This document shows positions 15,067 to 47,281 of a DNA stretch of 64,000 nucleotides, one piece after another. Where the stretch lies: the IMG/VR virus record IMGVR_UViG_3300028388_001496, positions 15,317 through 79,316 of that record, one strand, 5' to 3'. The DNA comes from a virus. Under the pieces are notes generated by a model. That model did no database searches. It had not been told where the DNA came from and saw only the letters and a program-made list of their open reading frames with translations. The first letter of the stretch is position 1. The number at the start of each line of letters is the position of its first letter. The position numbers were made by a program, and so were the translations under genes.

Positions 15067-15393
15067 ATGTTATTACACTTTTTAGAATTAGTAGGATTAT
15101 CACTACTAGGAACAGCAATATATACACTTTGGGCAGTAAGAAAGCATATTAAAGACTTTAAGCCTAAGATTTTTATAGGTAAAAATAAAGGATTTTGGAT
15201 ATGGTGTACTTGTTTTCAAGTGGTTATGTCTTTTACGGCTGTTAAATTTCCAGAGGTAATTGATGGTTTAGGTCAATTTATACCTATTAAATTTGATGAC
15301 CCTAAAGCATTTATTATAAGTGGATGGGCATTAGCTATGGCAGCTAATCAAGTATCTAAACCTGAACAAAAAATAGGTCAACTAAAGAAATAA
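15067..15393 (+). CDS. Membrane protein, holin candidate
   Basis: Three hydrophobic segments and basic C-terminus; lies upstream of the endolysin. Confidence 0.5.
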   Translation: MLLHFLELVGLSLLGTAIYTLWAVRKHIKDFKPKIFIGKNKGFWIWCTCFQVVMSFTAVKFPEVIDGLGQFIPIKFDDPKAFIISGWALAMAANQVSKPEQKIGQLKK

Positions 15394-28530: not shown

Positions 28531-29697
28531 ATGGCACTAGGGGCAATTATGATGGGAGCAAATGCCGGTATGGGTATTATAAATTCTCTCATTCAGAATA
28601 AACAAGCAAAAGAAGCTGCAAAGGAGGCTATGGATATTTCTTTAGCTAATCGCCAGCGAACAGATCAATTTGAACTTGAAGAATTTCCTGAAGAAGGCTA
28701 CAGAGTTAGTAGCTTTTATCAGGCTTATGGTGGTAAATTACCTATGAAAGCAAGAGGAGGTAATCTTGCACCTATGTCTTCTGATATGGTTGATGTTGTA
28801 GGACCAAGACACTCTCAAGGTGGAGTTCAAATTGGAGGTGCAGAGGTAGAAGGTGGCGAAACTATTAAAGACGGTGAAAGAGTATATAGTGATCGACTAA
28901 AGTTTGCTCCTGGTATTACTTATGCTGATCAGGCTAAGAAATACGCTAAGATGAAAGCTAAGTTTGAGAAAAAACTTAATAGTGATAATCCTCTTGCTAT
29001 TAATACTGCTAAAAGAAAGATTCAAATTTTAGACAGTAAAGAAGATAAATTATTTGAACAACAAGAAACTAGTAAAATGGGATACGGAGGTAAAAAGTTA
29101 CAAGCAGGAGGTTTTCTTCAAAATTTCATGCCTTATGCTGATAATATAGTTAATGCTGGTCTTAGTTTCTTAACTCCTAAAGTACCTAAACCTAATCTGG
29201 TTAAACCAAGAAAACTAAATACCAACATAAATGTCAATCCTCAGTTAAATGCCGTATCAAGAGCCGAAGATGCCGCTAAGAACACGATTCTTAACAATAC
29301 TAATAATAGTGCTGTTGCTCGTAACGCTATTACTAGGGCAAGGCTACAAGGTTCTGAGCAAAAAGCGAATATTCTTGGTAGGAAAGAAAATCAAGAAACT
29401 CAATTGAGGAATCGTAATACAATGTTCCAGACTCAAACTGATCAAGCTAATGCTGCTAAAATGGATCAGTATAATCAAATGAAAATGGGTCGGTCTTCTG
29501 CTATTCTTAGTAATATTTCTCAGAATATTGCTGATGCTTCTAAAGATTGGACGGAACAACAAAACTTTAGTGCTAAAAAAGACTTTAACACCAAGCAACT
29601 TGCTGCTCTACTAGCTAGTGGAGATTTTGGAGAAGGTGATGTTCTTATGCGTAGGTTTAAAGAAATACTTGCTGGACTAAGAAAAAAGAATAACTAA
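28531..29697 (+). CDS. Cargo/ejection protein
   Basis: GPRHSQGGV..EVEGGE..VYSDRL motif, repeated xGG motifs, hydrophobic Gly-rich N-terminus, Gln/Asn-rich helices. Confidence 0.65.
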   Translation: MALGAIMMGANAGMGIINSLIQNKQAKEAAKEAMDISLANRQRTDQFELEEFPEEGYRVSSFYQAYGGKLPMKARGGNLAPMSSDMVDVVGPRHSQGGVQIGGAEVEGGETIKDGERVYSDRLKFAPGITYADQAKKYAKMKAKFEKKLNSDNPLAINTAKRKIQILDSKEDKLFEQQETSKMGYGGKKLQAGGFLQNFMPYADNIVNAGLSFLTPKVPKPNLVKPRKLNTNINVNPQLNAVSRAEDAAKNTILNNTNNSAVARNAITRARLQGSEQKANILGRKENQETQLRNRNTMFQTQTDQANAAKMDQYNQMKMGRSSAILSNISQNIADASKDWTEQQNFSAKKDFNTKQLAALLASGDFGEGDVLMRRFKEILAGLRKKNN

Positions 29698-32444
29698 TGT
29701 TTCCAAAGTTTTCATACAGTAACGCTAAGTTACAGGATTTCGGTGCCCCTATTAATATACTAGGTAAAGCTCTTGATGAAAGAGAAAAACGTGCTGAGTA
29801 TGTTATAGATGCTACTGAAAAATATAAACAGGCTCTTGCTAGTATGCCTGTTACTGCTGCTGATCAACCTAAATTAAAAGAGGCTCAAGATTATTTAGGT
29901 AATGTTGTTGGAGAGTATGCAGAAGGAGAAAGCTATGCAGATAAATATTTAGATACAAAACGACTTGCTAGTGATTTAGAAAGTCGTTTCGGTCTTTCTG
30001 CTATGCAACAACAGTATAAACAACAACAGGCTTATATTACTGATTTAAAAGAAAGGTATAAGCAAGGAGATATTAGTGCTGGTGATATGGATCGAGCTAT
30101 TGCTGAGACTCAATACTTAAATCGTAAGGGTGTTGAAAAAGGTGAGGCTGGTTGGAGATCTACATTTAGTGGTAGAAGAGTACTTAACAAATTTGATGCT
30201 GCTAAAGAAGCTGAAGATTTTATTAAAGGTATTAAAGCTAGTACTATTATTGATCCTGATACGGGTGCTACTTATCACTATAGTCAAGATGTTCAAGGAT
30301 ATATTAATGCTGATACTGGTGATGCTGTATCAGCAGATAGAGTAGCTAGTGCTGCCAGAGGATATTTAATGCAGAATCCTGATTTTCTTGATAAAGTTCA
30401 AGATGACGTTTATTACGAACTTAATGCTATGTTGCGTGATCCTGAAACAGGTAGACGTCGTGATATGACTGCTGAAGATTTTCAAGCATTAACTGGAGTC
30501 AGTGTATCTAAAGCATTAGGTGATGAATTTGGTGGCAAAAGTATAGAAGAATTACAAGAGGAAGGAGTTGATCTTGAAACTTTATATGGAAGACTAAGAG
30601 CTGAAAAAGAAGTAAATAATGCTATTGCTCCTGTAGTAGGTAAAAATGCATATGCACAACTTCGTCGTACTCACTTAACTGATTTTGTTTTCCGTCACGG
30701 GTTAACTAATTCTGGAAAAGATAAAACTGACCCAGTTGTAGCTCATTCTTATCTTGAAGCTTTTCATACAGAGGATCGTTATAATAGTGAAGATCTTGCA
30801 CTTGCTGGTCAAAATAGAGTTCAAGCACAAGACAGAATCAAATTTATCGAAGAAAACATTGATAATGTAGATTCTTTAGACCCCGAAACAGGCAAATCTT
30901 ATAAGCAAGAACTCATAGACCTTAGAGATGTTGTAGAAAGAACTACTGAAAATATTGATAAAGTTCTTGAATATTCTCCTACTGCTCAAAAACTAATTAC
31001 CAAAGCTGTTCAAAACGAGGGAGAACCTTATGATGTAAGTTTAAATTCAGGTTCTATTGATGGACTTGATATTAACAAAGGTCAAATGATGGATCTTGTT
31101 AATATCGCTATGAGTCGTGATCTTGAGTACGAAGATTTATCTCCTTTTATCGGCCTTGAAGAAGATACGCAAGAAGGAGCGTTAATGGAAGATACACCTA
31201 AAGCAAATGCTATAAGTGCATTAAAACACAAAGTAGAGCGTGTAGCTTCTGAAATTGAAGATAATATTGAAGATGAAGATATAGTTTATAATAGAACTTA
31301 TCATTATTTGAATCTTAATGAATTATCTGCTGAAGAACGTAGATCAAACAGTTATCATCAACTTGTTAGACAAGTTAAAAATATTCCAGAACAAAGTAGT
31401 AACTTCCATACGACATTTAAACCCGTTGGCGATGGTAGAGCTTTAGCTGAATCCATAGCTGATGAATTTAATGTAGAAGATGGAGATACTATCCAATGGG
31501 ATAAAGCCGTAATTACTCCTCTATTTGATAATCGTAAAGATGAGGATGGAAACTATAAACCTCTTTACGGTATAAAAGTTCCTATTAAAAGAAAAGATAA
31601 AGACAGTGAAGAAGCTAAAATGGCAACTGTAACTGCACACGGAAGTGATCCTAATAGAGATGCTAGATATATAGATGCTATGCAAGATTTGTATCGTAAA
31701 TATAGAAGTATTCCAAATCCTAATGCTACACAAACAAATGTATTAGAAGGTCTTGCTGTAAATCTATTTAATCTTACACCAGCAGGAAGGGAGTTTGATA
31801 TGTACGATTTGAGAGGGGCTAAAAATCGTCAAGTATTTGATATACCCTTAGATGATGAAGGATTAAGAGCAGATATTCAAGTCTTTACAAAAGGTTCTCC
31901 AGATAATAAGAAATACTATCTTATCGAGCCTAACAAAAAGGATAGAATGGGTAATCATATGTTCTATGCTGCTAATCAATATGGAGATATTAGCACTTAT
32001 ACTGCTGCTCAAATTCAAAGCAGCTCTGATCTTACTTCTATAGGTGCAAATACTCCTACAGGATTAAAGAAACAAATTGCTAATATGTGGGCACAAACTC
32101 GTCCTCAATATAGAGTCGATACTTCTCAACTAGTAGATGCTAAAGGCATTTTTGGTAATGATATTAAAGATGAATCTGTAGATACCAGAGTTACTCCTAA
32201 AGCTGCTGACAGTTTAAGAATAATGAAGAGTAGATATAGCGATTTAATATTAACTGACGGACTAAGAGAAGAAGGAGTTAGTTATGGTGCCAAAGACTCA
32301 ATACATAAAGAAGCAAATGCTGTAGATTTAAGAGATACTCCTGGAGCTAGAGAATTAGCACAAGAATCTCCTGAGAGTCTAAATTCTATGGGTATCGAAG
32401 AAATAAGCTTTCATAATAACCATTTTCACGTTGTATTCAAATGA
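29697..32444 (+). CDS. Ejection protein with C-terminal peptidase M15-like domain
   Basis: SIHKEANAVD (HxxxxAxD) and terminal HFH (HxH) LAS-type zinc ligands. Confidence 0.7.
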   Translation: MFPKFSYSNAKLQDFGAPINILGKALDEREKRAEYVIDATEKYKQALASMPVTAADQPKLKEAQDYLGNVVGEYAEGESYADKYLDTKRLASDLESRFGLSAMQQQYKQQQAYITDLKERYKQGDISAGDMDRAIAETQYLNRKGVEKGEAGWRSTFSGRRVLNKFDAAKEAEDFIKGIKASTIIDPDTGATYHYSQDVQGYINADTGDAVSADRVASAARGYLMQNPDFLDKVQDDVYYELNAMLRDPETGRRRDMTAEDFQALTGVSVSKALGDEFGGKSIEELQEEGVDLETLYGRLRAEKEVNNAIAPVVGKNAYAQLRRTHLTDFVFRHGLTNSGKDKTDPVVAHSYLEAFHTEDRYNSEDLALAGQNRVQAQDRIKFIEENIDNVDSLDPETGKSYKQELIDLRDVVERTTENIDKVLEYSPTAQKLITKAVQNEGEPYDVSLNSGSIDGLDINKGQMMDLVNIAMSRDLEYEDLSPFIGLEEDTQEGALMEDTPKANAISALKHKVERVASEIEDNIEDEDIVYNRTYHYLNLNELSAEERRSNSYHQLVRQVKNIPEQSSNFHTTFKPVGDGRALAESIADEFNVEDGDTIQWDKAVITPLFDNRKDEDGNYKPLYGIKVPIKRKDKDSEEAKMATVTAHGSDPNRDARYIDAMQDLYRKYRSIPNPNATQTNVLEGLAVNLFNLTPAGREFDMYDLRGAKNRQVFDIPLDDEGLRADIQVFTKGSPDNKKYYLIEPNKKDRMGNHMFYAANQYGDISTYTAAQIQSSSDLTSIGANTPTGLKKQIANMWAQTRPQYRVDTSQLVDAKGIFGNDIKDESVDTRVTPKAADSLRIMKSRYSDLILTDGLREEGVSYGAKDSIHKEANAVDLRDTPGARELAQESPESLNSMGIEEISFHNNHFHVVFK

Positions 32445-35400
32445 GAAAGAGCATTGGAGAATTAATGAAAAACCAGAATACGAATCCTACTCCTGACCCT
32501 AAAGAGGGTAGGAGTATTGGAGCTTCTGGAGCTAAGTTAAGCAGACCGTTTAGTGAAGGTGATGAAACTTATGTTGAAACCGAAGCTTATAAGCCTTATT
32601 TAGGTGCCCCTAAAGGTGCTTCTGCTTTTAACTTTGACATGGATTATGAAAGAGCTAGAGCATTAGGTCAATCTAACTGGGAACAAGCTGGTAATGCAGT
32701 AGCTAGATTACTCCCTAATACTATTCTAGAAATTGCTAATCAGGTAGGTGCTACTCTTGATTTAGAGGATTATGCCAATGCTGATGGTGAGATAGGTAAC
32801 TGGTTGAGCAAGTGGGCATTGGAGCGTCAGCAAGATATTAATGAAGCATTACCTATATATAGAGAACAACCTGATCGTGCTTTAGATGTTGGAGATTTTG
32901 CATGGTGGATGGAGAACGGTTCTGAGTTAGTTAAATCTGCTACTGCTTTTGTTGCTCTTGGTTATGGTGTAGGAGTTGGTTTAGGTTCTTTAGGTACTTT
33001 ATCAAAAGGTACAAGAGCTGTAAAATGGTTAGAAAGTATTGCTGGAGTTGATAACGTAGCTAAAGGAGCACAAGCAGCTGGAGCACTTACTAATGCTTAT
33101 ATTCTTAACCATGCTGAAGGATATGGAATAGCTGTAAATGTTTTTGATGAAACTTATAAAGAAGCTCTTCAAAAATATTCTAATACACCTGATGTAAGTC
33201 CTGAAGAAGCTGATAGACTAGCTCGTAGAGATGCTGCTCGTAAAGGTGAAAATGCTTTAAATCTTAATAAAGCTAATATAGCTCTTAACTTATCTAGTGC
33301 GGCTATGTTCCTGAAAGCTCCGATGCTTACAAGACATATCCTGAAAAAGCCTAATCTTCTCAGAAGTCTTAAACGCACAGGAGTTGAAGGGTTACAGGAA
33401 TCTGCTGAAGAAACTATTAACCTTATCGCAGAAAAACGTGCTTTGGCTGATGATTTCTCTTTATCGGCTATGATTGACGATGCTTTCACTAGAGAAGGTG
33501 CTGAAGCTGCATTTTTAGGTTTTCTTGGTGGTGCCGGTCAAACAGGAATGACCCTGGCAGGCCGTGATTTAAAAATACGCAGAGATAGTGAAGGTAACAG
33601 GGTAAGTGATAATCAACTCTTACGGGATCGTCTGTCTACTCAAGAGGAACAAATGGCAAAGTGGGATGCTATGAGTAAAGCAGAGAAAATATCGTCTGTT
33701 ACGGATGCTTTTCTCAATCTTAACGAACAGGCTAAAGCGTTCCAAGCATACGAGGCCGTTAAAGATAGTGATCCAGTAAAAGCTGAACAGATTGCTAATA
33801 AAATATTTGCTAATCAAGTTTATGCTGCATTTAATACTGGTACTACAGAGAGATTTGAGCAAATTTTCGATGAGATTTCAAAGTTAGATGAAGACCAAGC
33901 TAAAGCAAAAGGACTTGATCCTAAAACTTATAAGCAAAAAGCTACTGAAGCTAAAGAAACAATTAAAAGTCTAGAGAAACCTTTTGTAGAATCTAGAGGT
34001 TATCTTAATGCAAATAAAGTATATGGTAATCAAGCTGAATTAGCTTATTACAGGAGAGAAGAAGATAAGTTAAAAAAAGAACAAGAAAATCTTCTTAATA
34101 GTATTATTCAGTATGGTGCAGATCGTAAATTAGATATGACTGCTGAGAGTGTTGAGAACTGGAAAGGTGTTCAAGACCTTCCTGAATATGCTCAATACAC
34201 AGCTAATAAAGCTGCTTTAAATGTTATTGAAGATCGTAAAAAGTTTCTTGTTGATGAGTATGCTGAGATTACATCCAGAAAATATCAAAATAAACTTAAA
34301 GAGGATGATAGAGAAAGGATAAATAATCTTAAAAGTGAAGAAGAAAATCAAAAAGGAGCTACAGCTAAAGCAAATACTGTTGCAAAATCTAAAAATGTTA
34401 AAAAGAGCATTAAGAAAAAGCAAGAGGCGACTCCGCCTGTGGAGCCGACTACAGTTGCTGAAGAACCTGCTTCGATAGCTCAAGTAGATTTTGGTCCAGG
34501 AGCTGAACAAGCTACTGAAGCTGCTAATAAAGTACTAGCAGATAAACGTACTAAAGTTGATACTAAAATTCAACAACTTGAAACCTTTAGAAATAAAGTT
34601 AATGAAAGTAGTGATGAGGTATTAAAAAATAAAGTTAATATCCAAGTTGCTCAAGCTATTAGAGTTCTAAAAGCTGAAAAAACTCAACAAGAACTTAAAT
34701 CAAAAGAAGAGGATCAAAATAACAGTGCTATTGAGGGTATAGCTACAGATCTTGCTAATGATTTTGAAGAAGACTTTTCTCCAGCTAGTGAAAATTTAGA
34801 AAAACAAAGAAGTCGTATTAATAAAATGCTCGATTTGCTGGGTTCTATCGAGGCTACTGGTACAGACATTACTAATTTTCAAGAAGTTGGTACGAAAATA
34901 AAAGGAGTACTGGGTGAGGATCGTTTTATTCGTTACTATCAACAGTTTCAAGACCTATATAATATTGCTGTACCAGAAGGTAAAAATAATCAACCCTATG
35001 AAGAACTTTTCTTAGACCCTGCACAAGAAAGAGAAATTTTAGCTAATGACAGGAGTATTGCTCAAGCAGCTTTACCAGCTCAAGTTTTTAAACTTACTGA
35101 ACAGGAGCTTTTAGAAGAAATTGACAAGGGTTATACCAAAATCCTGGAAGATCAGGGTTACAAGAGATATAAAAAAGAAAATGCTACAGAAGAAGGTAAA
35201 CGACTTGATGTTGCCCACAATACAGTAGCTCACAAGGACAAAGATTACCGATATACCGCAAAAAGCAGTAAAACGGATAGGTTCAATGTACTCAATTTTA
35301 CTTTAGGTAAAACTGATCTTAATACTTATTTTACTAAAAATGCTGATGAAGCAGTATTAGATTTTGATAAGATTAATGTAGGTAGTAAAGTTACTTTTAA

Positions 35401-38400
35401 AGTTGTACCAGAAGTTGTGTATGACGATGGTACAGTTGTAAGGAGAAGATTTATTGAATGGGAAAAAGGTCATAGAGTTGATGGTGCTGATATAGTTAGG
35501 GATGATTTATCGACAATAGATGATGAATTTCTTGGTGATATTGTCGATCAAGCAAAATCAGCAAAAATAGTAAAAATTAACGGAGAAAATGAAAGAGGAG
35601 TAAGTGCTGACATAAGAGTTGTAACTGATGATGGTGCTCAAACTTTTACTGTTTTTCTAAAAAGTAATAGAAAAGAATTTGTAGAAAAAGTTAAAGACGG
35701 TAATGTACAAGTTCTGCCTATGGTAACAGATGCTCCTATTGCTATGTTCTGGAAAGGACGTAGAATTAATGGTGCTTATTTACACCTGCCTGAATGGATT
35801 CGTCCTGATAACGTAAGAGGAGTTGAACAAAGTGTAGAAGAACAAAAAGCAAGACTTACTGCAATTCGTGATGCTGTTATTCGTAATGGAGAAATTACAT
35901 TTGAAATTACTGAAAGAGGAGATGGATTTCCATTAGTAGATCCTAATGGCATTAAAAATAAAACATCTGCTGCTATGCCAGAAGCAACGCTTGCAGTAGG
36001 TAAAGATGGTTATTTTAAAAAGGGTATTAATAGCCATGAAGTAATTAATAAATATATTCCTGCTGATGGTTGGTTGTATGGTATATTCCCTGTAAATAAA
36101 AATAAAAACTGGGCTACTCCATTAAAACCTTCTTCGTTAGAAGAGCATCCTGATTATGTTAGTACTTTAACTCAAGTTTTACAAGCTCATTTAATTGGTG
36201 CTGAAACTAAATTAGTTAAAGACATTCGTGATGAGCTAAGTATCGACATTCTTACTTTACCTGGCCTCAAACAGTTTTTTGACTTGTTTGTTTATACTAG
36301 CCAGAAGAAGGATAATAATGATGATTTTAAAGCTAGAGTTGATAGTATTAGAGATGAAGAAGCTTTAATAGAATTTACTGACTATACTATTAGGTTTTCC
36401 AGAGGTAATAATAATGGTAATACTACTGAAACATTAAGTTCTGAGCGTATTAGAACTATGAATGTTCCTGCTTCTGAAAGAGTTATTACTAAAGCAGTAA
36501 AAAATCTACAAAAGGTTCTTTATAATCGTTCTATAAATCCAGTTGCTAACAGGTTTGGTAAAAAAGATTTTAAACTTCCAATTATACGAAATGGTGAACT
36601 TAAAGTACAGACTTATGATTCCTATGATAATTTTATCAAAGATCATAGCTATACTGCTAATTACAGCTATACCTTACCTAGCGGTAAAACTATATACACT
36701 GCTCAAAGTACTCTTAGATTTGATGAAACAAGAGTTATTAAACCTGAAGTACCAACTGAGTTAGAAACAGTAGAAGAGCCTATAGAATCTGCTCAAGAAT
36801 CTGAAGAAGATTTTGATCTTCTTGCAGGTTTTGAAGAAGATTTTGCTCCAAAGTCTTTGTCAAGACAACAAAGAAGAACTATTAAAAGAACTACTCCTGA
36901 TGAATTAGATATTAAAGGAGTAAGTGTCAGAATACAAGAAGCTATTATAAATCATTTAGTAGCTGAAGTTGTAACTAGGTATGCTAAAAAAGGAGATCTT
37001 AATGCATTTACTTATTTAGATATTTTTAGAAAGAATAAGCTAAGTACTTTTAGGAAAATGTATGAGGAGGCTATTGAAAATGCTAAATCAGATAACCTTA
37101 AAAAGCAACTTAAAAGTAAGCTTAATATTGTTAATTCTTTAGATGAGAATTATAACAAGATTTTAGCTATGACCGTTGAACGGTTACAGCGTGTTAACGG
37201 TTTAGTTTTGGATGGTCGTACCATTCGTAAAATAACTAAAGACATTAAGGAGGATAATCTTGATTTTGAAGAAAAGGTAAATGATGATGGAGAGGTAAGA
37301 CAAGAAAACTGGCAGACTAACATATTCAAAACTGATTACAGAGAAAAAGTAAGTGCCGAAGTTAAAAACTTACTTACTGGAATTAAGAAAATAAAAGAGG
37401 ACGGTTCTGTTGAAAAAACTGTCTTTGGTTTAGATGCTGTATTACCTTTTGATAGAGTATTTAATGATGTTACTGCTATTACTGCTTTTAGTAATAAAGG
37501 AGAAGATGCTATATCTGGACCTAATTTTGATAATCTAGTAAAGCTTATAGAAGATCAGGTAGAAAACAAGCCTTATTTGCAACAAGTTGTAGATACGCTT
37601 AGAGATGCTGATCCTCAAACTCAAAAGCAGTTTACTAGAGTAATGAGTAAGCACTATACTCATCATATCTATGCCTTTAAAACAGAAGATGAAGACGGTG
37701 TTCCAAAAATTTTCTATTCTAATAGTGATAGAAATTCCCTACAAAATGCTATTAGAGATCGTTGGGCTGCCAACTTAATGGCTAGTAAACTTGTTACTGT
37801 TAATGATAGAGGTACTCAACTTAAATTAAGAGCTTCTGAAGTTAATAAGCTTAGGAAGTTACAAAAAGAGATTGCTGATGATCCTAAAAACGAAGAAAAC
37901 ATTCCTAAACTTGTTAAATTATTTAATGATTTAGGTGTTGATGTTCCTACTAGGTTTGTTGAAAGAATTTTTAACAATCAATTTGTAATGAATGGACGAA
38001 TTGTACCTACAAAAGAAGTTGTAGCAGGTTCTAGTGGATTCATTAAAAATTACCTAGATAGATTAGATGCTCTTAAAGGCAAAGATCTTCTAAAAGAAAA
38101 GCTCTATGAGAATTTTGGAGCTATGAATACTTTTATTGAAGAAGCTGCTAAAGTCTATCCTAGTTACTATGCACACTCCTTTAAAGATGTTAGAGGAGAA
38201 AATTACTTTGGTTATTCTCAGAATAAGTTTATTGTAGATAGGATAAAACAACTTAAAACTGATCCTGATCTTATTGATCGTCTTCAAAAGCAACCTTTTA
38301 CTCGTAAAAGTTGGATGCTTACTAAGTTGACTGAGAATAATAACGATGGAATGAATTACCTTCAATATAAAACTATTGATGGTATAAATGATGGTAGAGA

Positions 38401-41400
38401 AGGTTCTAAATACCATCAAATGACTACTCAAGAACAAGAGTTGTTTAAAGTAGGTTTATTCTATTCAGAAAATAAATATAATAGAAGTGAGGATGAAAGA
38501 TATATAGTAAATACTATGTATCCTACTTTATCTGACAAAGAAACTGCATATTCACTTAGATTTTTAAGTAGAGATTTTACTAAGGGTGCTTTAAATGGCG
38601 ACTTAAATATTCAATGGGCTAAAGCGTTATTCAATAATATAGTAATGCCAGAGGCCAGGAGAAAGTACACTAAGCAAGTCAATCCTGAGAATTTTGAGTA
38701 CTCAGGAATGAATGAAGGTAGTGATGTGTTTTTGTTGTTCCCAGAATTGAACATGGTAAAAGAAATGTTTGAAGAGGGTACTCACGTTATAAAAGACTTA
38801 GATACAGATAAAAAAGCCTATAACGCTGGTGTAGAAGCTTTCAAAAGAATTGTCGATAACCTTGCTAAAAAACGTCTTGATACGTTTAAAGGTCTAGGAA
38901 TTGTTGAAACAGTAGAGGGTCAGAATAATGCTCCTAGTAAAGAAATCCTAACTATGGTACCTCGTAAAAAAGGTACTACTGCTCTACAGGAAGCATATAA
39001 CTATGAGATCAATTACCTGTTGAGTAATATGGGTGTTTTTCAATTGTTTACGACTGATCCTGCAAACTACTTCAAATCAAAACATTGGAAAACTGTAGCT
39101 GAAAGAGTAGGTACAAGTACTCGTATGGCTACTCTTCCTTTTTATACTTTAGAAGATTTTCAAAAAGAGCATGATGATACCTTTGATAATATGGGTAAAC
39201 GTCTTGCTGCTGATTCTGCTCCAGGTGAAGATATACCTGGTAGTGATAGTGATTCATTTACTATTGCTCACGTTTCTGATACAGAAACAGAGTCTATGTT
39301 CATGGATTATTATAATTCTATACTTGATAAAGCTGATGCAGATCAATATAAGAAAATGGCAGATACTGATGCTCAGGAATATACTACTATAGAAGAGCAT
39401 CTAAAAATAATGGAAAGCCTTGGAGAGATAAGTAATTCACAAAGAAGAAGTTTACTTATCAAAGAAGGTAAAGGTACTCTTACGGGAGAAGATTTAGATG
39501 TTATTCTTCAACCTATGAAGCCACGTTATGTAACTAACAAGTGGAATGGGCCGATAGAAAGAAGGATTTACATTAAGTCTTCCAGTTTCCCGTTAATAAA
39601 ACAACTTACTAAGGGATTAGAGATAGATAAACTACGCGAAGCTATGCATAAAGCTAAGATAGATCGTGTTGTTTATAATACTGCTTTTAAAGTAGGTGGA
39701 AATCTTGAAACTAGTGCTGTCTTTAATGGAGATGGAACTGCTGTTGATAAGCTTGTGGAAACTCTGAGCAGGGGTGAAATCTCTGGGTTACCTCGTACAG
39801 GCATGAAAATTCAACAGCAAGTTCCTCCCTCCATTCGACTTGGAGATGGTAAAAGTGATAAGAATTATATTACTAATCCAACTCAATTAGTAGCTCTTAT
39901 TACTAGTATGTTTAGAGAAGAGGCTGCTTTTGATATTTCTGGTAAGAAAAATGCTAAAGGTAAAGAAGTTCAAGATCGTTTGAATGAAAATTATCAAAAA
40001 CTTTATCAATATAAGTTTGAAGAACTTAGAAAAGAACTAGGATATGATCCTATTACTAATACTTTAAATACAGGTAGGCTTAGAAATATTCTTCAAGCTG
40101 AAGCTATAGAAAGAGATTATCCTTTATACGACTTACTAGCTTTTGATATTACCGGCGAGGGAAAATTTCAAGTTCCTTTGTGGGCAACTGGTGTTTCTGC
40201 TAAGATTCAGAGTATGCTCAACTCCATTGTGTTCAATCGGATGATCCGGCACCGCCCTAGAGGACAATCCTATGTACTTGGTAGTAATATGGGTTTCAAA
40301 CCTGTAATTAAAGAAGGTACAGAAGCAGATGAAGTTATACAATCTGAAACAGGAATTGTATTCGATCAATCCTGGCTTAAAGAAAGTGGAGGAACATTAC
40401 GCCCTATGCGTATTGAAAGAGGTGAAGTAAAGCCTGCTGAAGTTATTGCTCCATTTAGAATGTACGATAAGACTGGAAAGAGATTACAACTTTCTAAATA
40501 TGTTGATGCAAATGGTAACATAGATACATCTAAACTTGATCCTGAAGTTCTTGAAATGCTTGGATTTAGGATTCCAACTCAGGGTGTTAAATCTATGTCT
40601 TATATTAAAATTGTAGGATTTTTACCAGAAGCTTCTGGAGATTTATTATTAGCTCCTTCTGAATTTACTATTCAAATGGGTAGTGACTTTGATATTGATA
40701 AGCTTTACGCTTTAATGTATCATACAAACGTTACTGAAAATGGTAAAGTATCTGTTTATAAAGGAGGTAGTGTTTCTAAAACTATTGATAATGATAATCT
40801 AAGATTATATTTCTCAGTACTTAAAAGCAATAGTACTTATGTACAAAAACAAATTGCTAGTCCTCTTGATTTTGGTCAACTTAAAGACTTAGCTGACGAA
40901 ATTTATCCTATTGTAAAAGAGCAAGAAGATTATATAGGAATTAGTGAAGGATACCAAGCTTATAAATACAATAACGCTAGAGCTGGTAAACTTGCTGTAG
41001 GTGTATTCAGTAATGATATGCGTCTTATGGCTAACTTTGCAGATACAGGAGTTTATTGGAGAACTAAAAAAGGAAAGCAATTAAGTTTTAATATTGGTGG
41101 TGTTAGAAATACTCCTTTAAGTTATCCTAGAGCACAGACTAAGCCTAAAGCTGCTGTAATTGAAGCTTTTCAATCTCTTGCTGTAGATAACGAAAACGAA
41201 CAGGCATTACACAAACTTAATATTAATAATAGAACCTTTGGATTTATTCGTGCTATGGCAATGAGTGGATTTGAAGAAGATATTATTAGTTATGTTCTTG
41301 CTCAACCTATTGTTATTGATTATGTAAACGAGTTACTTAAAGGTGCAACTGAAAATGAAGCCAATTCTCGTGCTAGGGCACCGTTTGTAGTAGAAGAAGA

Positions 41401-44400
41401 TCTTAAATGGACTCTTAATACTAATATTAGTAAAAGTGATCTGAAGCGTAATATGCGTAGGGCACAAGCTAATTCAGTTCAGCAGCATAGAGTTTTAGAC
41501 TTGTTTCAATATCTAAGTGGTAAAGGATCAGAGCTTAATACTATATCTACTGCTCTTAATAGTTTTAATTCTGGTATTGGTAAAAACTTGTTTTATTCTA
41601 TTGCTAAAGAAAAGCAATACTTGGCATTATTTACTCCAGACTATACAAGTAAGTATGCTAATCTTCATAATATAATTGGAGATTACATTTCATTGTCTGT
41701 TAAAAATCCTAACGTATCTAATCCAGAATATAATCAAGTTGTTATAGATTGGACTAAAGCTCACGTTAATGGTAATCAGAAAGAAGTATTAGATAAGCTT
41801 ATTAATGATGGTTTCTATCCTATTACACCTGTAGCAGATCAGGTGGGAGAGGATTTAAGGTATCGTAAGAATGTAGAGTTTATCAAGCCTAAAACAATCC
41901 CGGCTTTAGCTAGTGTATATGGTACGCTACTGAATAATAATATCTGGTCCGAGTTCTTTCCTTATAATAATGAGGGAGTATTAGAAACAGTACGACAACT
42001 TAAAAAGCTTAAAGGCTATTATGGAAGTTCTCTTAATAGGGATGCAGAACTAAGTCAAAAAGCTTTTAATGATATTAAAAGATATTTAGCTTCTAGAGGA
42101 GCTGGTGTTTTAGTTGATGGTAATCTTACTCAAGAACGTGCTAGATTATTTATTGATACAAATGAGAATAAATCTATTGCTACTATTGTTAAAGAATACA
42201 AAGAAGAAGGTAAGCTTAGAAACTTATTTGTAAATAGACTTAGCTTTGACACTAAAAAAGCTATTGTACCTTCTAGGATTCTTTATAAAGCTGCTGTAGC
42301 AGAAAACTTACATGAAAGAGAGATTTATCAATCTTTCTATTCTATGTTAATTAGTAATAGAAAACTTGATCCTAAAAACGGTATTGAGTATGATGTAGGG
42401 ATGGTAGCTAGAGATATGATAGCTGCTCAATTGCTTGGTAATGGTGTACAAGGTGCTGAAGAGTTTATTAAATACATTCCTATTAACTATCTGCGAACTA
42501 TAGGTTATTATGGTGCTATTACAAATGACTTGGTTAATAGTATAGAACCTGGCATTATTGTAAAACAAGCTATTCAACATAATCCTAGTTTTATTTATAA
42601 CTGGAAAGTAGATGCTGCCCTTAAAAAGGAGATATTAAAAGAATCAGAAGATGGTAGAAAAGTAATTATTGATTTAAACCGTAAATTTAAAGCTCCTGAT
42701 TTTATTGCTATACCAGACTCTACACATCGTAAGGGTTCTAGATTGTATGAACTTAATGAAGAACGTACAGAATACAATCAAATTCCTACATTAGGAGATC
42801 AAAATATCTACGAGTTTAATTTTGGAGAACCTAATGCTATATCTGCATTTCCATTTAATAATTTACAAGATCCAGAACCTGTAACTGTATCTACTGAAGT
42901 TGATACTGATACAGATCTTGTTAAACCTTTAAATGTAAATGATGAGATTATTAGTGATCCTCAAACTCAAACTGTAGAAGAGAGGTTTAATCTTGATAAT
43001 CCTAATGTATTTGATATTCTTACTAAAGTTACACAAAGTAATAATAGTTTACATAAAGTATTTGCTACTGCAATACTAAATTCAAATAATACTGAGATTC
43101 TTAACAAAATTAAATTTATTGTTGATCCCAGTCTTAAAGTAAGAGGTAGCTTTAATATCAATGATTGGACTATTAAAGTTAATCCTTTAGAATATGACTT
43201 TCCTGGAGAATTTGAAGCACTTTTCTTGGAAGAGGTTATTCATGCTGTAACTAAAGAAGCTATATTAGAAAATAAACATGGTGAAGTATTACAACTTAAA
43301 GCTTTAAGAAAAGAAGCTATTAATGCTGTAGAAGCTATGTTTAAAGCTAATAATCCTGATGCTAGTTTTAAAGTAGCTGCTGAAGCTATTAGAAAGAAAA
43401 TACAGGAAGGTAAAGCTTTATCTGCTTTGGAAGAGGATATTATTTATCCTCTTATGAATGATGAAGAATTTATTGGTCGTCTGTTTAAATCTAAAGAGCT
43501 ACAAAAAATTCTGAATCAAACTAAAAGCCAGAACGGTACTATAAGTATCTGGGATCGGTTCAAAAACTGGATTAGAGATATTTTAAACGGCTTAGGTTTC
43601 GATATTCAAAAAGGTTCTGTACTAGATTACAGTTTGAGTAATATACTAGAGCTTATTCAGTCTGAAAAGCCTTCTGCTCAAGTAATGGAAGAAATGAAAC
43701 GAGTTTCTCCTGTTATGAGAACTTTAAAACAAGTATATCAACAATTTGATTTAGTAGTAGAAACTGATAATAGATTCTCTCCTAGACTTATTAATAATGG
43801 ACCTGAAGTAGTTGATAAAATAAATAGTACTTATTCTAATATTGAAGCTTCATTTATTCCAGACGATCCATATAATACAGGAGAACCTACAACTACAGGT
43901 TATGTAAGATTAAAGTTTACTGAAGATTTTGCTCCTAAAGTAGAACGTAGTAATCTTAGATCATTCCAGGATAACTATAAACGTAGGATGCGTTTCTTAA
44001 AAGACGCTATTGATAAAGCTGCTGCTCAAAAAGATTTTAAACGAGTTGAAACTCTTAAAATACAATTAGATCAGCTAACTGAAAGAGAGAAAGATGTACT
44101 CACTATGGAATTTCTTGCAGATGCTAAAGCACAAGGTTTGCAAGATATGGCTGAAATTTCTCAAATATTTAAACGAGGAACTACAGTTGGTGATGCAATC
44201 TATATTAAAGAAATTACTGATTATTGGACTAACTTAGATCAATTATTATTTACTGAAGATGATCTATACTCTAGTGTTATTAAAGAGTTTAGAGAAATCG
44301 AGAACATGGCTTATCAACATCAACAAACTTTACATGATATTGAAGAAAATTATGCTAATAAAGTTCTCGACGATTATGGATTTGGTACTACAGTAGAAGA

Positions 44401-47281
44401 TATATTTAAGTATTATAAAGATGTAAATAGAATTACATCTGAAACTTTAGATATTAGTAGATTTGGTAATGCTTTAAGTAGTAATTTACTTCTTAAATTA
44501 AAAGAAGCAAATATTCAAGCTATTGATGAGTCTAGGGATATGCTTAAAGATCTGGAAGAAAGAGAAAAAGTTCTTCGAGCTGCACTTAAATCCATTGGTT
44601 TTACCGGCGAGGATACATTTGATGTATTTAGACAAAGAGATTCTAAAGGACGTTTAACTGGTCATTTAGTTCGTCGTTATAGTGCTGATTTTGTTAAGAC
44701 TTTAGGCAGACTTAAAAAAGGTCTTAATAGAAATAATAACAGACAAGTTTATGAAACTCTTCTTAATTGGTCAAGAACTAATACCAAAGAAATTGATTTA
44801 AGAAAGATTTTCCTTGATGCGGAAAGAGATCAAGATTATATTGACACTCTTAAAGAAGAAATGGGAGAAACTCATTACAATGCTTGGTACAAGAATCAAA
44901 AGGCTAAAATTGATCGTTACTTTGAACAAAAACAGAATTTTGAAGAATTGCTTGAAGAAAGAAGAAGTAATAACCCAGAACAAGCTATGGCTACTTGGGT
45001 TGCTCAACATTCTCCTTTTGTATATCAACGTCATTTAAAATCTGGACTTACTAAAGGATTTGAAGAAGGATTAAATAAGTTCCGTAATACTGATTTTATA
45101 GTATCTGTTCCTGCTAAAGAAAAGGATTATGATAATAATTTTAAAACCATAGAATCTAATAAAGATATTTATGATTTCTACAATTATTTCACCGATTTGG
45201 ACGCAAAATTACAGTCGCTATTGCCCGAAAAAGAACGAGTTAATTTGATCTATTACGGAATCCCGTATTTGCCTAAAACAGCCCAAAATGCGTTTAGGGG
45301 TAAGGGTATGACTATTGGTTTAGCCCCAGTTAAAGATGCAATCGCAAGAACTGTTAGAATAGCTGGTGAAGGTCAAGAAGATATAAATCCTATTACAGAT
45401 AGACCTTATCGTAATCTTGATATTAGTCTTACAAAAGACAATAGACTTGAATTAAAAGTTTATATGGAGAATAAGACTATAGAGTATCAAGAAAATAATA
45501 ATGGTCAACTACCTTCTAAAGAGTTGCAAAGTGAATGGATGGCCGATAAAATAAATGAATTGAGTCAGCAAAAATCATTTGATCTTCCTGCTGTACTTAG
45601 ACTTTATTCTATGGCTGCACATACTTATACTCATAAAGCTAGGGTAGAAGATTATATGCGTCTTGTTCAAAATATATTTGATAGACAAAAAGAAAATAAA
45701 TTAGATAGGGCTACTAATGAACCTATTGAAGGAAAAACTAAAGAAGCTAGTAATAGTTTTAGAAATACTAAAGCTGCGTTAGATTATACTGCTAGTACTT
45801 TTTATGGTATTACAAAATCTAATGAAGGAATAACTAGTGATAAGGTTTATACTACAGAAGAGAAAAAACTACTTAAAGATGTTGAAAAAAATATTCTTAA
45901 AGTAGAATCTATGTATAGATCTGGAGTTCTTAGTGAAGATCAGTATAATGAAAAGATTAAAGAGTTATATGATATAAGAGATAGTATTGGAGGAATTGCT
46001 GTATGGAGTAGAAGAGGAGATGCTGTTCTCAAGTATGTACAGCTAAAGGGAATGGGATGGAACTTTATGAGTGGTATTGCCAACATAGGTTTTGGTCTTA
46101 TTTCTAACTATATTGAAGCTGCTGGTGGTTTACACTATACTAATGCAGATTTAAACAGAGGATATAAATTAGTAAGAAGCAGTATGCTTCGTAATGCTAC
46201 TTTTAATCGTGTAACTACTCCTACTGCTAAGAAGATTCGTTCACTTATGAATAAGTGGGACGTACTAAAAGATGCTAGTAAAGAGCTTTATGAAAATGCA
46301 TTTGATTTAAGAGTTAGTGATAAACATAAGTGGTTAGAGCCATATAATATGACAGTACGTACTGAATATTTAAACCAGGCTCCATTATTAATCGCTGTGT
46401 TAAATAATAAGAAACTAACATTACCTGATGGTACTGTTACTACTTATTGGGATGCTTTAGATGAAAATGGTAATTGGGATACAGAAAAATATGGTCCCGA
46501 ACCTACTAAAGAACTTACTAAAGCTAAACTAAAATTGGATCAACTCATTAAACGTAATCATGGTAACTATGATCCTGTTTCAGCACTTAAAATTAAAGAT
46601 AAGATTCTTGGTAGAGCTTTAAGTCAGTTTAGAACATGGATGTTTGAAGGGTTTGCTAATAGATTTCAAAATCGTAAATATGATGCCCTTTTAGAAATGG
46701 ATGTAAAGGGTAGGTATGTTACTACTATGGATTTCTTTAAAGAGTATGGTTTTAAAGGTAGTATAGATGTACTTAAAGGTATGGTTAGACACCTTACTTT
46801 TGGTAAAGTCTTTAAAAATTCTGATTTTGATAGTATTATTAGTGATAATAACAAACTAGATAAAATTGATGCAGCTAACCTTAGAAAACTTATGGCTGAG
46901 ATTAGTATGTATATAAGTTTATATACTAGTTATATGCTTCTTTCTCTTGCTGCTGGAGAAATGGATGATGATGATAAGTATAAAAAGTATGCACTTAATC
47001 TTTTCATCAATCAAGGAATTAGACTTAAAACTGATATTCTGTTTTATAGTAATCCTCAAGAATTTAGAAATCTAATGCGTGATCTTATTCCAGCTATGTC
47101 TATTATTAAAGATGGATATGAGTGGGCAGATGCAGTAGGAAGATTTATACAAGGAGATGATGAAATTAAAACAGGAGTTTACTCTGGAAATTCTAGGTTA
47201 CTTAGAGAAACAGTACAAATGTTCCCATTTGGTACTCAAGTCTATAAAAATATCAACTACTCGGTTCAGACTTTCGACTAG
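32441..47281 (+). CDS. Virion RNA polymerase polyprotein (4946 aa)
   Basis: GFRIPTQ and catalytic MGSDFDIDK (D2749, nt 40685-40699); zincin-like segment ~aa 3597; hydrophobic N- and C-terminal ejection-type regions. Confidence 0.9.
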   Translation: MRKSIGELMKNQNTNPTPDPKEGRSIGASGAKLSRPFSEGDETYVETEAYKPYLGAPKGASAFNFDMDYERARALGQSNWEQAGNAVARLLPNTILEIANQVGATLDLEDYANADGEIGNWLSKWALERQQDINEALPIYREQPDRALDVGDFAWWMENGSELVKSATAFVALGYGVGVGLGSLGTLSKGTRAVKWLESIAGVDNVAKGAQAAGALTNAYILNHAEGYGIAVNVFDETYKEALQKYSNTPDVSPEEADRLARRDAARKGENALNLNKANIALNLSSAAMFLKAPMLTRHILKKPNLLRSLKRTGVEGLQESAEETINLIAEKRALADDFSLSAMIDDAFTREGAEAAFLGFLGGAGQTGMTLAGRDLKIRRDSEGNRVSDNQLLRDRLSTQEEQMAKWDAMSKAEKISSVTDAFLNLNEQAKAFQAYEAVKDSDPVKAEQIANKIFANQVYAAFNTGTTERFEQIFDEISKLDEDQAKAKGLDPKTYKQKATEAKETIKSLEKPFVESRGYLNANKVYGNQAELAYYRREEDKLKKEQENLLNSIIQYGADRKLDMTAESVENWKGVQDLPEYAQYTANKAALNVIEDRKKFLVDEYAEITSRKYQNKLKEDDRERINNLKSEEENQKGATAKANTVAKSKNVKKSIKKKQEATPPVEPTTVAEEPASIAQVDFGPGAEQATEAANKVLADKRTKVDTKIQQLETFRNKVNESSDEVLKNKVNIQVAQAIRVLKAEKTQQELKSKEEDQNNSAIEGIATDLANDFEEDFSPASENLEKQRSRINKMLDLLGSIEATGTDITNFQEVGTKIKGVLGEDRFIRYYQQFQDLYNIAVPEGKNNQPYEELFLDPAQEREILANDRSIAQAALPAQVFKLTEQELLEEIDKGYTKILEDQGYKRYKKENATEEGKRLDVAHNTVAHKDKDYRYTAKSSKTDRFNVLNFTLGKTDLNTYFTKNADEAVLDFDKINVGSKVTFKVVPEVVYDDGTVVRRRFIEWEKGHRVDGADIVRDDLSTIDDEFLGDIVDQAKSAKIVKINGENERGVSADIRVVTDDGAQTFTVFLKSNRKEFVEKVKDGNVQVLPMVTDAPIAMFWKGRRINGAYLHLPEWIRPDNVRGVEQSVEEQKARLTAIRDAVIRNGEITFEITERGDGFPLVDPNGIKNKTSAAMPEATLAVGKDGYFKKGINSHEVINKYIPADGWLYGIFPVNKNKNWATPLKPSSLEEHPDYVSTLTQVLQAHLIGAETKLVKDIRDELSIDILTLPGLKQFFDLFVYTSQKKDNNDDFKARVDSIRDEEALIEFTDYTIRFSRGNNNGNTTETLSSERIRTMNVPASERVITKAVKNLQKVLYNRSINPVANRFGKKDFKLPIIRNGELKVQTYDSYDNFIKDHSYTANYSYTLPSGKTIYTAQSTLRFDETRVIKPEVPTELETVEEPIESAQESEEDFDLLAGFEEDFAPKSLSRQQRRTIKRTTPDELDIKGVSVRIQEAIINHLVAEVVTRYAKKGDLNAFTYLDIFRKNKLSTFRKMYEEAIENAKSDNLKKQLKSKLNIVNSLDENYNKILAMTVERLQRVNGLVLDGRTIRKITKDIKEDNLDFEEKVNDDGEVRQENWQTNIFKTDYREKVSAEVKNLLTGIKKIKEDGSVEKTVFGLDAVLPFDRVFNDVTAITAFSNKGEDAISGPNFDNLVKLIEDQVENKPYLQQVVDTLRDADPQTQKQFTRVMSKHYTHHIYAFKTEDEDGVPKIFYSNSDRNSLQNAIRDRWAANLMASKLVTVNDRGTQLKLRASEVNKLRKLQKEIADDPKNEENIPKLVKLFNDLGVDVPTRFVERIFNNQFVMNGRIVPTKEVVAGSSGFIKNYLDRLDALKGKDLLKEKLYENFGAMNTFIEEAAKVYPSYYAHSFKDVRGENYFGYSQNKFIVDRIKQLKTDPDLIDRLQKQPFTRKSWMLTKLTENNNDGMNYLQYKTIDGINDGREGSKYHQMTTQEQELFKVGLFYSENKYNRSEDERYIVNTMYPTLSDKETAYSLRFLSRDFTKGALNGDLNIQWAKALFNNIVMPEARRKYTKQVNPENFEYSGMNEGSDVFLLFPELNMVKEMFEEGTHVIKDLDTDKKAYNAGVEAFKRIVDNLAKKRLDTFKGLGIVETVEGQNNAPSKEILTMVPRKKGTTALQEAYNYEINYLLSNMGVFQLFTTDPANYFKSKHWKTVAERVGTSTRMATLPFYTLEDFQKEHDDTFDNMGKRLAADSAPGEDIPGSDSDSFTIAHVSDTETESMFMDYYNSILDKADADQYKKMADTDAQEYTTIEEHLKIMESLGEISNSQRRSLLIKEGKGTLTGEDLDVILQPMKPRYVTNKWNGPIERRIYIKSSSFPLIKQLTKGLEIDKLREAMHKAKIDRVVYNTAFKVGGNLETSAVFNGDGTAVDKLVETLSRGEISGLPRTGMKIQQQVPPSIRLGDGKSDKNYITNPTQLVALITSMFREEAAFDISGKKNAKGKEVQDRLNENYQKLYQYKFEELRKELGYDPITNTLNTGRLRNILQAEAIERDYPLYDLLAFDITGEGKFQVPLWATGVSAKIQSMLNSIVFNRMIRHRPRGQSYVLGSNMGFKPVIKEGTEADEVIQSETGIVFDQSWLKESGGTLRPMRIERGEVKPAEVIAPFRMYDKTGKRLQLSKYVDANGNIDTSKLDPEVLEMLGFRIPTQGVKSMSYIKIVGFLPEASGDLLLAPSEFTIQMGSDFDIDKLYALMYHTNVTENGKVSVYKGGSVSKTIDNDNLRLYFSVLKSNSTYVQKQIASPLDFGQLKDLADEIYPIVKEQEDYIGISEGYQAYKYNNARAGKLAVGVFSNDMRLMANFADTGVYWRTKKGKQLSFNIGGVRNTPLSYPRAQTKPKAAVIEAFQSLAVDNENEQALHKLNINNRTFGFIRAMAMSGFEEDIISYVLAQPIVIDYVNELLKGATENEANSRARAPFVVEEDLKWTLNTNISKSDLKRNMRRAQANSVQQHRVLDLFQYLSGKGSELNTISTALNSFNSGIGKNLFYSIAKEKQYLALFTPDYTSKYANLHNIIGDYISLSVKNPNVSNPEYNQVVIDWTKAHVNGNQKEVLDKLINDGFYPITPVADQVGEDLRYRKNVEFIKPKTIPALASVYGTLLNNNIWSEFFPYNNEGVLETVRQLKKLKGYYGSSLNRDAELSQKAFNDIKRYLASRGAGVLVDGNLTQERARLFIDTNENKSIATIVKEYKEEGKLRNLFVNRLSFDTKKAIVPSRILYKAAVAENLHEREIYQSFYSMLISNRKLDPKNGIEYDVGMVARDMIAAQLLGNGVQGAEEFIKYIPINYLRTIGYYGAITNDLVNSIEPGIIVKQAIQHNPSFIYNWKVDAALKKEILKESEDGRKVIIDLNRKFKAPDFIAIPDSTHRKGSRLYELNEERTEYNQIPTLGDQNIYEFNFGEPNAISAFPFNNLQDPEPVTVSTEVDTDTDLVKPLNVNDEIISDPQTQTVEERFNLDNPNVFDILTKVTQSNNSLHKVFATAILNSNNTEILNKIKFIVDPSLKVRGSFNINDWTIKVNPLEYDFPGEFEALFLEEVIHAVTKEAILENKHGEVLQLKALRKEAINAVEAMFKANNPDASFKVAAEAIRKKIQEGKALSALEEDIIYPLMNDEEFIGRLFKSKELQKILNQTKSQNGTISIWDRFKNWIRDILNGLGFDIQKGSVLDYSLSNILELIQSEKPSAQVMEEMKRVSPVMRTLKQVYQQFDLVVETDNRFSPRLINNGPEVVDKINSTYSNIEASFIPDDPYNTGEPTTTGYVRLKFTEDFAPKVERSNLRSFQDNYKRRMRFLKDAIDKAAAQKDFKRVETLKIQLDQLTEREKDVLTMEFLADAKAQGLQDMAEISQIFKRGTTVGDAIYIKEITDYWTNLDQLLFTEDDLYSSVIKEFREIENMAYQHQQTLHDIEENYANKVLDDYGFGTTVEDIFKYYKDVNRITSETLDISRFGNALSSNLLLKLKEANIQAIDESRDMLKDLEEREKVLRAALKSIGFTGEDTFDVFRQRDSKGRLTGHLVRRYSADFVKTLGRLKKGLNRNNNRQVYETLLNWSRTNTKEIDLRKIFLDAERDQDYIDTLKEEMGETHYNAWYKNQKAKIDRYFEQKQNFEELLEERRSNNPEQAMATWVAQHSPFVYQRHLKSGLTKGFEEGLNKFRNTDFIVSVPAKEKDYDNNFKTIESNKDIYDFYNYFTDLDAKLQSLLPEKERVNLIYYGIPYLPKTAQNAFRGKGMTIGLAPVKDAIARTVRIAGEGQEDINPITDRPYRNLDISLTKDNRLELKVYMENKTIEYQENNNGQLPSKELQSEWMADKINELSQQKSFDLPAVLRLYSMAAHTYTHKARVEDYMRLVQNIFDRQKENKLDRATNEPIEGKTKEASNSFRNTKAALDYTASTFYGITKSNEGITSDKVYTTEEKKLLKDVEKNILKVESMYRSGVLSEDQYNEKIKELYDIRDSIGGIAVWSRRGDAVLKYVQLKGMGWNFMSGIANIGFGLISNYIEAAGGLHYTNADLNRGYKLVRSSMLRNATFNRVTTPTAKKIRSLMNKWDVLKDASKELYENAFDLRVSDKHKWLEPYNMTVRTEYLNQAPLLIAVLNNKKLTLPDGTVTTYWDALDENGNWDTEKYGPEPTKELTKAKLKLDQLIKRNHGNYDPVSALKIKDKILGRALSQFRTWMFEGFANRFQNRKYDALLEMDVKGRYVTTMDFFKEYGFKGSIDVLKGMVRHLTFGKVFKNSDFDSIISDNNKLDKIDAANLRKLMAEISMYISLYTSYMLLSLAAGEMDDDDKYKKYALNLFINQGIRLKTDILFYSNPQEFRNLMRDLIPAMSIIKDGYEWADAVGRFIQGDDEIKTGVYSGNSRLLRETVQMFPFGTQVYKNINYSVQTFD

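Follow-up and report, generated by a model that had tools for sequence, protein, structure and literature searches.

We analyzed a stretch of 64,000 nucleotides of viral DNA (positions 15,317 to 79,316 of IMG/VR record IMGVR_UViG_3300028388_001496), here called the window, that carries a giant open reading frame (ORF) for a cargo protein of a marine crAss-like phage, and studied a short peptide motif that recurs at three joints, or seams, of this protein. All coordinates are those of the window and all window features described are on the plus strand. The giant ORF (32441..47281) encodes 4946 amino acids (aa) with no cysteine. As the initial annotation had proposed, units that are separate in other crAss-like phages are fused here, since the single ORF comprises gp67-type, gp66-type (RNA polymerase, RNAP) and gp65-type units. 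The contig to which it belongs has 79,316 bp and a G+C content of roughly 33%. In the ORF order the terminase/portal/capsid and tail module, which is of crAss type, comes before the giant ORF, and TerL, portal and major head protein of crAss type were found by PHROGs matches upstream on the same contig.

The closest cultured relatives are Flavobacterium phage FpV4, with gp32 of 4287 aa and gp33 of 1596 aa, and Cellulophaga phage phi14:2, in which gp66 (2180 aa) is indeed a stand-alone protein encoded between the large genes for gp67 (1797 aa) and gp65 (1421 aa). A tblastn comparison of the giant protein with phi14:2 g066 gave an E value of 3e-23, and in blastp aa 2187-2759 matched gp66 and aa 4528-4933 matched gp65. 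The RNAP catalytic motif DFDID (aa 2749-2753, 40685..40699) was assigned by homology to gp66 and is invariant in relatives. Near the N-terminus there is a conserved domain (aa ~70-560, 32648..34120) with the sequences NQSNWEQ and DFAWWMENG and one hydrophobic segment at aa 163-181. A blastn search of the giant ORF against phages returned nothing beyond one 81-nucleotide match, a Pfam scan of the whole giant gave nothing above threshold, and the sole match in a PHROGs scan was to 'virion structural protein'. By analogy with phi14:2 and with the proteomics of crAss001 (PMC10172136), the product of this uncultured contig would be present in virions and would be ejected.

The seam motif

The motif F-[ET]-E-D-F-[AS]-P occurs as FEEDFSP at site 1 (aa 775-781, 34763..34783), FEEDFAP at site 2 (aa 1464-1470, 36830..36850) and FTEDFAP at site 3 (aa 3826-3832, 43916..43936). 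Site 2 is bipartite, with an upstream half-copy EEDF (aa 1455-1458, 36803..36814) that corresponds to SEDTFD in split relatives. The positions reported in the initial annotation, including the EEDF ahead of site 2, were confirmed. The motifs cut the protein into pieces of 781, 689, 2362 and 1114 aa, in agreement with the earlier estimates of about 780, 690, 2360 and 1115 aa, and the RNAP, with its catalytic DFDID at aa 2749, lies in the third piece as described. The genome-wide search that had been suggested as a check was made in six frames, both on the window and on all 79,316 bp, and found [DE]DF[ASDN]P at these three places only.

From composition the naive expectation for the pattern is 3e-5, a value that overstates the case because the pattern was picked after being seen. 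A pattern-blind search for any three 7-mers with five common fixed residues yielded this triple alone in the real protein; in shuffled proteins 28% gave some triple, 6 of 300 gave one as similar, and 0 of 300 gave one as informative. The recurrence of the motif within the protein is thus of modest significance (p 0-2%). The nucleotide flanks of the three copies are unrelated, so that the copies do not stem from a recent duplication. Two further candidates were set aside. EYEDLSP, a possible fourth site found with a looser pattern in an upstream 915-aa ORF, is not conserved in the related contigs L003 and L004 and was treated as chance, and DNRFSP at aa 3776 lies within a predicted β-hairpin and is not conserved.

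Genome-specific flavors of the motif

Homologs were collected from two IMG/VR contigs with fused giants of 5141 and 5151 aa (L003 and L004, 34-38% identity), by a profile scan that added 37 further loci, and by an exhaustive HMMER search with aa 560-1560 as the query, which retrieved 17 fused giants with lengths of 5005-5749 aa. About ten fused giants, with identities of roughly 30%, have a motif at these sites in a flavor that is private to each. In the alignments each of the three seams has a related peptide immediately ahead of a conserved anchor, with the consensus [D/E/N]-[F/L]-[A/S/D]-P following an acidic run. Where the window has EDF[AS]P three times, L003/P0010 has DIDLAP, DLNLAP and DFDLAP at sites 1-3, L004/P0007 has DGDQDP, VDLDP and LDLDP, P0009 has DLAP at all three sites, P0004 has NLAP, NLAP and DLAP, and P0008 has ELSP and ELAP; distant giants have DDDFSP at site 2. 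The site 1 equivalents in relatives are DIDLAP, DGDQDP, ENLAP or DADLAP. At site 2, Phi-[ASD]-P directly precedes the conserved anchor in 10 of 11 closer giants, and at sites 1 and 3 the D and P are invariant while the surrounding linkers vary. In the split relatives a regular-expression search showed no enrichment of the motif above shuffles, and it is absent from phi14:2 and FpV4.

The sharing of a flavor within a genome was quantified over four positions. Mean identity was 2.59 within genomes versus 1.50 between genomes, and 0 of 5000 label shuffles reached the observed value. Such concordance would be expected if the sites track one recognizer, and the private flavors suggest that recognizer and sites co-evolve. 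The peptide at the seams is real and under selection, it is probably recognized by something, and it probably serves as a cutting or docking tag.

The conserved terminal proline after acidic residues could also point to an effect on translation. In that case the acidic run plus proline would pause or destabilize the ribosome, through a SecM-like arrest with proline in the A-site, an acidic nascent chain or a 2A-like skip, and thereby help co-translational folding of the modules or yield N-terminal products. Site 2, DLLAGFEEDFAP, is loosely like 2A peptides (LAGDVESNPGP). We regard this explanation as very improbable. The 2A-defining NPGP is found at none of the three sites, abortive termination could not yield the downstream units, and we know of no 2A peptide that functions on bacterial ribosomes. 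Moreover, flavors without the typical proline were recognized by eye in P0005 (DNMS, DNFS) and L005 (DDNPD, DANPD).

Structural setting of the sites

The surroundings of the sites were modeled with AlphaFold2. The model of aa 3500-3960 had a predicted local distance difference test score (pLDDT) of 76, and that of aa 700-1560 was poor overall with a pLDDT of 57. Site 1 is predicted to lie in a break with pLDDT<50 (aa 776-785) that separates two long helices. Site 2 is part of an acidic linker of 68 residues (aa 1434-1501, 36740..36943) that is predicted to be disordered (pLDDT<50) and into which modules are preferentially inserted in relatives. The predicted order in the aa 3500-3960 model is a helical zincin-like domain, a small α/β module (aa 3762-3826, 43724..43918) and the motif; site 3 would be located where a strand (aa 3820-3826) runs into a segment with pLDDT<50 (aa 3829-3838), which is followed by long helices. 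In these models all three sites thus fall in predicted disordered linkers between folded parts. The motifs are conserved in relatives and have a disordered context; the opposite outcome, unconserved motifs inside folded domains, had been named in the initial annotation as evidence against a role in processing. The linkers that hold the sites are also where lengths vary and modules insert. A fold search with the aa 700-1560 model gave no meaningful match and no protease fold. We considered whether the α/β module that precedes site 3 is homologous to the N-terminal module found in stand-alone gp65-type genes, and dropped the idea (hhalign probability 0.2).

In several relatives the site-3 linker also contains, beside the seam motif, one copy per protein of QL[SDG]LF, a canonical sliding-clamp-type peptide. 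It is found at aa 3926 in P0006, aa 3829 in P0010/L003, aa 3864 in P0011 and aa 3979 in P0012, and in the gp65-type gene of L008 and L012 at aa 135. The window protein does not have this β-sliding-clamp-binding pentapeptide.

Acidic disordered linkers are the typical context for short linear motifs, and the presence of QL[SDG]LF next to site 3 indicates that these particular linkers host binding motifs. The seam peptide may therefore be a docking motif on a chain that stays intact, with the private flavors arising from co-evolution with a single binding partner. For loading, the partner could be the portal, the scaffold or the capsid interior; for ejection in the right order, it could be part of the tail channel; and once the protein has been delivered, it could be a host protein. 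We consider docking the main rival to cutting and a credible possibility, though we lean against it. The motif is present in no other protein of this phage, which argues against docking.

Modules inserted between motif copies

In three independent cases a module has been inserted at site 2, and a motif copy in the resident flavor stands on either side of it. In L004 the module is an ART-PolyVal ADP-ribosyltransferase (L004:7129-7662; PF18760, E=3e-13), bracketed by EEDLDP and TVDLDP; in L009 a 600-aa insert with an AAA_33/zeta-toxin-like kinase (L009:7462-9315) lies between DEDLSP and AVDLSP; and the insert of P0004 has 555 aa between GDLAP and INLAP. The presence of a motif at every module border is the strongest argument for separators on which something acts, and viral polyproteins are built in this way. 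A docking tag would not obviously need copies on both sides of every insert. Inside another giant gene, in the same frame, we observed a RecD/PIF1-like superfamily 1 (SF1) helicase (L015:18646-21243). For the insert at site 3 of L003 a NADAR-like identity was guessed and dropped, as Pfam gave no match.

Repeat-flanked inserts are also expected after recombination at a common sequence, and the sites are insertion hot spots in linker regions that are otherwise poorly conserved. The peptides might then be passive hinges or recombination scars, acting as structural stops or as micro-homology for module swaps and having no dedicated recognizer. This is unlikely in our view. Both copies that flank an insert have the flavor of the recipient, common to all of its seams, which would require selection or homogenization. 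The unrelated DNA flanks of the three window copies and the invariance of D and P at sites 1 and 3 amid variable linkers likewise speak against a scar.

Gene borders and terminal cysteines in split relatives

The split relatives have three recurrent gene junctions, J1, J2 and J3. J1, of the gp67|gp66 type, falls within the site-2 linker about 15 aa downstream of the motif. Stand-alone gp67-type proteins retain the IYTxQ..F domain, the acidic linker and the motif (DEDLSP in P0013, LFDMSP in P0033 and DFDMSP in P0037). J3, of the gp66|gp65 type, maps to aa 3742-3834 with site 3 at its downstream edge, and homology to stand-alone gp65-type genes restarts at aa 3834-3839, right after site 3. These genes have an extra N-terminal module of 155-230 aa, and in phi14:2 the gp66|gp65 border is located upstream of the zincin-like module. 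The proposal that the motifs mark gene boundaries of homologs was not borne out in that form: sites 2 and 3 lie within the border intervals, but the mapping is approximate, there is no exact coincidence, and site 1 has no border.

J2 is found at approximately aa 2540 inside the RNAP unit. The two RNAP halves in L006, L007, L008, L010-L012, L015, L016 and L020 are about 480 nucleotides apart. The gap in L008 (L008:10860-11336) encodes a 158-aa ferritin-like protein (PF00210), and Rfam searches of three of the split loci, made to find an intron in the gap, gave no match.

The absence of cysteine from the giant protein compares with 26.6 cysteines expected from the other ORFs of the genome. Cysteine is also absent from 17 of 17 fused giants elsewhere and from the 388-aa and 915-aa ORFs upstream in the window. 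Split proteins show a different pattern. At all 16 split junctions examined, from 10 representative phages (L001, L002, L006, L008, L015, L016, L018, L020, L021 and L022), the upstream protein has a cysteine among its last 4 residues and the downstream protein has one among its first 7, against background rates of 2.4% for C-terminal and 6% for N-terminal positions. The junction cysteines are often the sole ones: phi14:2 gp67, gp66 and gp65 have 1, 2 and 1 cysteines, and the L008 proteins likewise 1, 2 and 1. One gene border without a cysteine pair (...HLESL* | MQKLY... in L016:2746-11685) lies inside a conserved region and is probably a frameshift or an assembly error instead of a true junction. 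The short first gene of L025 was not counted as forming a junction, being a frameshifted copy.

The distribution of cysteines suggests that the units have to remain physically linked in the particle. Judging from these sequences they are probably chained head to tail, by fusion in the window phage and by disulfides elsewhere. Head-to-tail chaining fits threading through the tail. It would also allow the split forms to part by reduction on arrival, while separation of the fused forms, if it occurs, would require a protease. In a literature search we found no paper on cysteine-free ejection proteins or on terminal cysteine junctions. A broader scheme, which we think rather doubtful, is that crAss-like RNAP cargo is loaded and ejected as one continuous thread, held by fusion here and, in split forms whose proteins otherwise have almost no cysteine, by head-to-tail disulfides that would join a penultimate C-terminal cysteine to a cysteine at residues 3-6 of the following protein (16 of 16 junctions); the split units would then be parted by reduction in the cytoplasm and the fused ones by cutting at the private D-Phi-s-P peptides, either by a retuned EExxH domain or by a host protease. 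That the units are kept joined, through fusion or through terminal cysteine pairs, suggests that the connection matters, a point in favor of docking on an uncut chain.

Zincin-like domain

The obvious candidate for a cutting enzyme is the zincin-like domain of the giant protein itself (aa 3524-3773, 43010..43759), in which the metal motif is altered. The domain is homologous to the HExxH modules of FpV4, phi14:2 gp65 and split metagenomic relatives, but in the window EEVIH (aa 3597-3601, 43229-43243) replaces HExxH, the metal-binding and catalytic motif of the family. EExxH was found in every fused giant whose motif could be read (13 of 13; P0011 had no regular-expression match) and HExxH in every split relative, so that the correlation of EExxH with fusion is perfect in this sample. 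The downstream NDEEF, which belongs to a conserved NxxEF with an invariant E3676, aligns with the NxxEF of the HExxH homologs, and its glutamate is a putative third metal ligand. EExxH and NxxEF are conserved at about 25-35% identity, and the domain is therefore under constraint. Foldseek returned nothing at E<=0.001; the best local matches were to the minigluzincins selecase and jannalysin (prob 0.96-0.98 over ~70-84 columns), with IrrE and lethal factor also among the hits, and these similarities are weak. A zincin-like domain without HExxH is more easily reconciled with docking than with cleavage.

Possible processing of the giant protein

We tentatively interpret the seam peptides as co-evolving processing sites for one endopeptidase, a reading that we find best supported but hold with somewhat less than even confidence. 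F-x-E-D-F-[AS]-P would be the private seam tag of this phage, placed at the flexible joints of a single-chain, cysteine-free virion cargo, and one endopeptidase would recognize the tag and co-evolve with it. Cutting would probably take place after packaging or after delivery into the host and would give an N-terminal product of ~89 kDa, a middle product of ~78 kDa, an RNA-polymerase/zincin-like product of ~268 kDa and a C-terminal product of ~126 kDa. Cleavage is favored by the recurrence of a peptide at module borders, the mark of a protease-processed polyprotein, and by the position of sites 2 and 3 inside the intervals of the relatives' gene borders. An acidic residue followed by a hydrophobic one (F or L) fits the hydrophobic P1' preference of thermolysin-type gluzincins. 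Fused crAss polyproteins have been called 'likely cleaved', and their zincin-like domain was suggested to activate the RNAP (Drobysheva et al., bioRxiv 10.1101/2020.03.07.982082). For polyvalent proteins, zincin-like peptidases were predicted to act in (auto)processing, and DdrB of P1 undergoes processing prior to packaging (Iyer et al. 2017, PMC5512222).

Several observations weigh against cleavage. The split gp67-type proteins have a tail of only 14-70 aa after the motif and need no cut to part the genes, so that retention of the motif in these proteins is better explained by docking. Site 1 is a gene border in no relative, and J2, which is frequent in relatives, has no motif in the window. 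EExxH is confined to the fused forms, which would most need a protease, and no other protease family was revealed when the head module and the giant were scanned with PHROGs and Pfam. AlphaFold gave no confident placement of the site-3 motif segment beside the zincin-like domain. The N4 virion RNAP (~3,500 aa), with a similar HExxH domain, is packaged uncut (PMC5512222, PMC13434306), and since it functions as an uncut giant (PMC13434306) it also provides a precedent for docking. Finally, the cargo proteins of crAss001 were reported at their full predicted masses, and processing is not mentioned (Bayfield et al., PMC10172136).

Presumed upstream cargo genes

The two upstream ORFs without cysteine (388 and 915 aa, together 28531..32444) presumably encode further cargo proteins. 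The 915-aa ORF (29697-32444) overlaps the start of the giant ORF, and its C-terminal module is variable among relatives. Its counterpart in L004 (913 aa, L004:19-2757) has an SLT lytic transglycosylase domain at the C-terminus. In the window and in L003 the C-terminus shows an S-x-H...D...H-x-H pattern for which Pfam gave no match; by eye the C-terminus of the ORF looked like peptidase M15. The product of the 915-aa ORF is probably a wall-degrading ejection protein.

Comparison with known systems

A question left open in the literature is how crassviruses pack ~0.5 MDa of polymerase-associated protein, pass it along a narrow tail and activate it inside the host (PMC10172136; 10.1101/2020.03.07.982082). 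For crAss001 partial unfolding during ejection was argued and many virion disulfides were documented (Bayfield et al., PMC10172136). 'Huge polyprotein' crAss forms were mentioned by Drobysheva et al. (bioRxiv 10.1101/2020.03.07.982082), and in the literature searched no cleavage sites were proposed for fused forms and no seam peptides were described. The seam peptide provides exact residues and peptide ends, by which the conjecture that the polyprotein is likely cleaved becomes testable.

Polyvalent proteins (PMC5512222) are likewise giant, delivered and multi-modular and include a zincin-like module. The window protein, with its RNAP and zincin-like module, similarly combines unrelated effector or enzymatic domains in one delivered chain, and the signature ART-PolyVal domain of polyvalent proteins is present in the site-2 linker of L004. 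The window clade differs from them by its EExxH and by a genome-private seam peptide that is outside the published description. The N4 virion RNAP is likewise giant and ejected, its modules are loosely connected and one of its domains bears HExxH (PMC13434306, PMC5512222), but it has an unrelated polymerase fold, is uncut and has no described seam motif.

The phi14:2 proteins gp67, gp66 and gp65 share with the window a homologous DFDxD RNAP core, the C-terminal unit and the zincin-like module, in the same gene order behind the structural module. They differ in being encoded by three genes, lacking the motif and having HExxH, whereas the window has one cysteine-free ORF. The head proteases of phages T4 and phiKZ embody a similar idea, in which one short consensus is used across cargo substrates that are cut inside the capsid. 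T4 gp21 cuts after [L/I]-x-E and phiKZ gp175 at S/A/G-x-E. Those phages encode a prohead protease that can be recognized, and capsid proteins have the sites as well, whereas here no such protease was found and the motif is present in one protein only. RNA-virus polyproteins have a site per module border in a lineage-private flavor that tracks the protease, as the seam peptides would if they are cut; the window differs in that it belongs to a DNA phage and the protein concerned is virion cargo.

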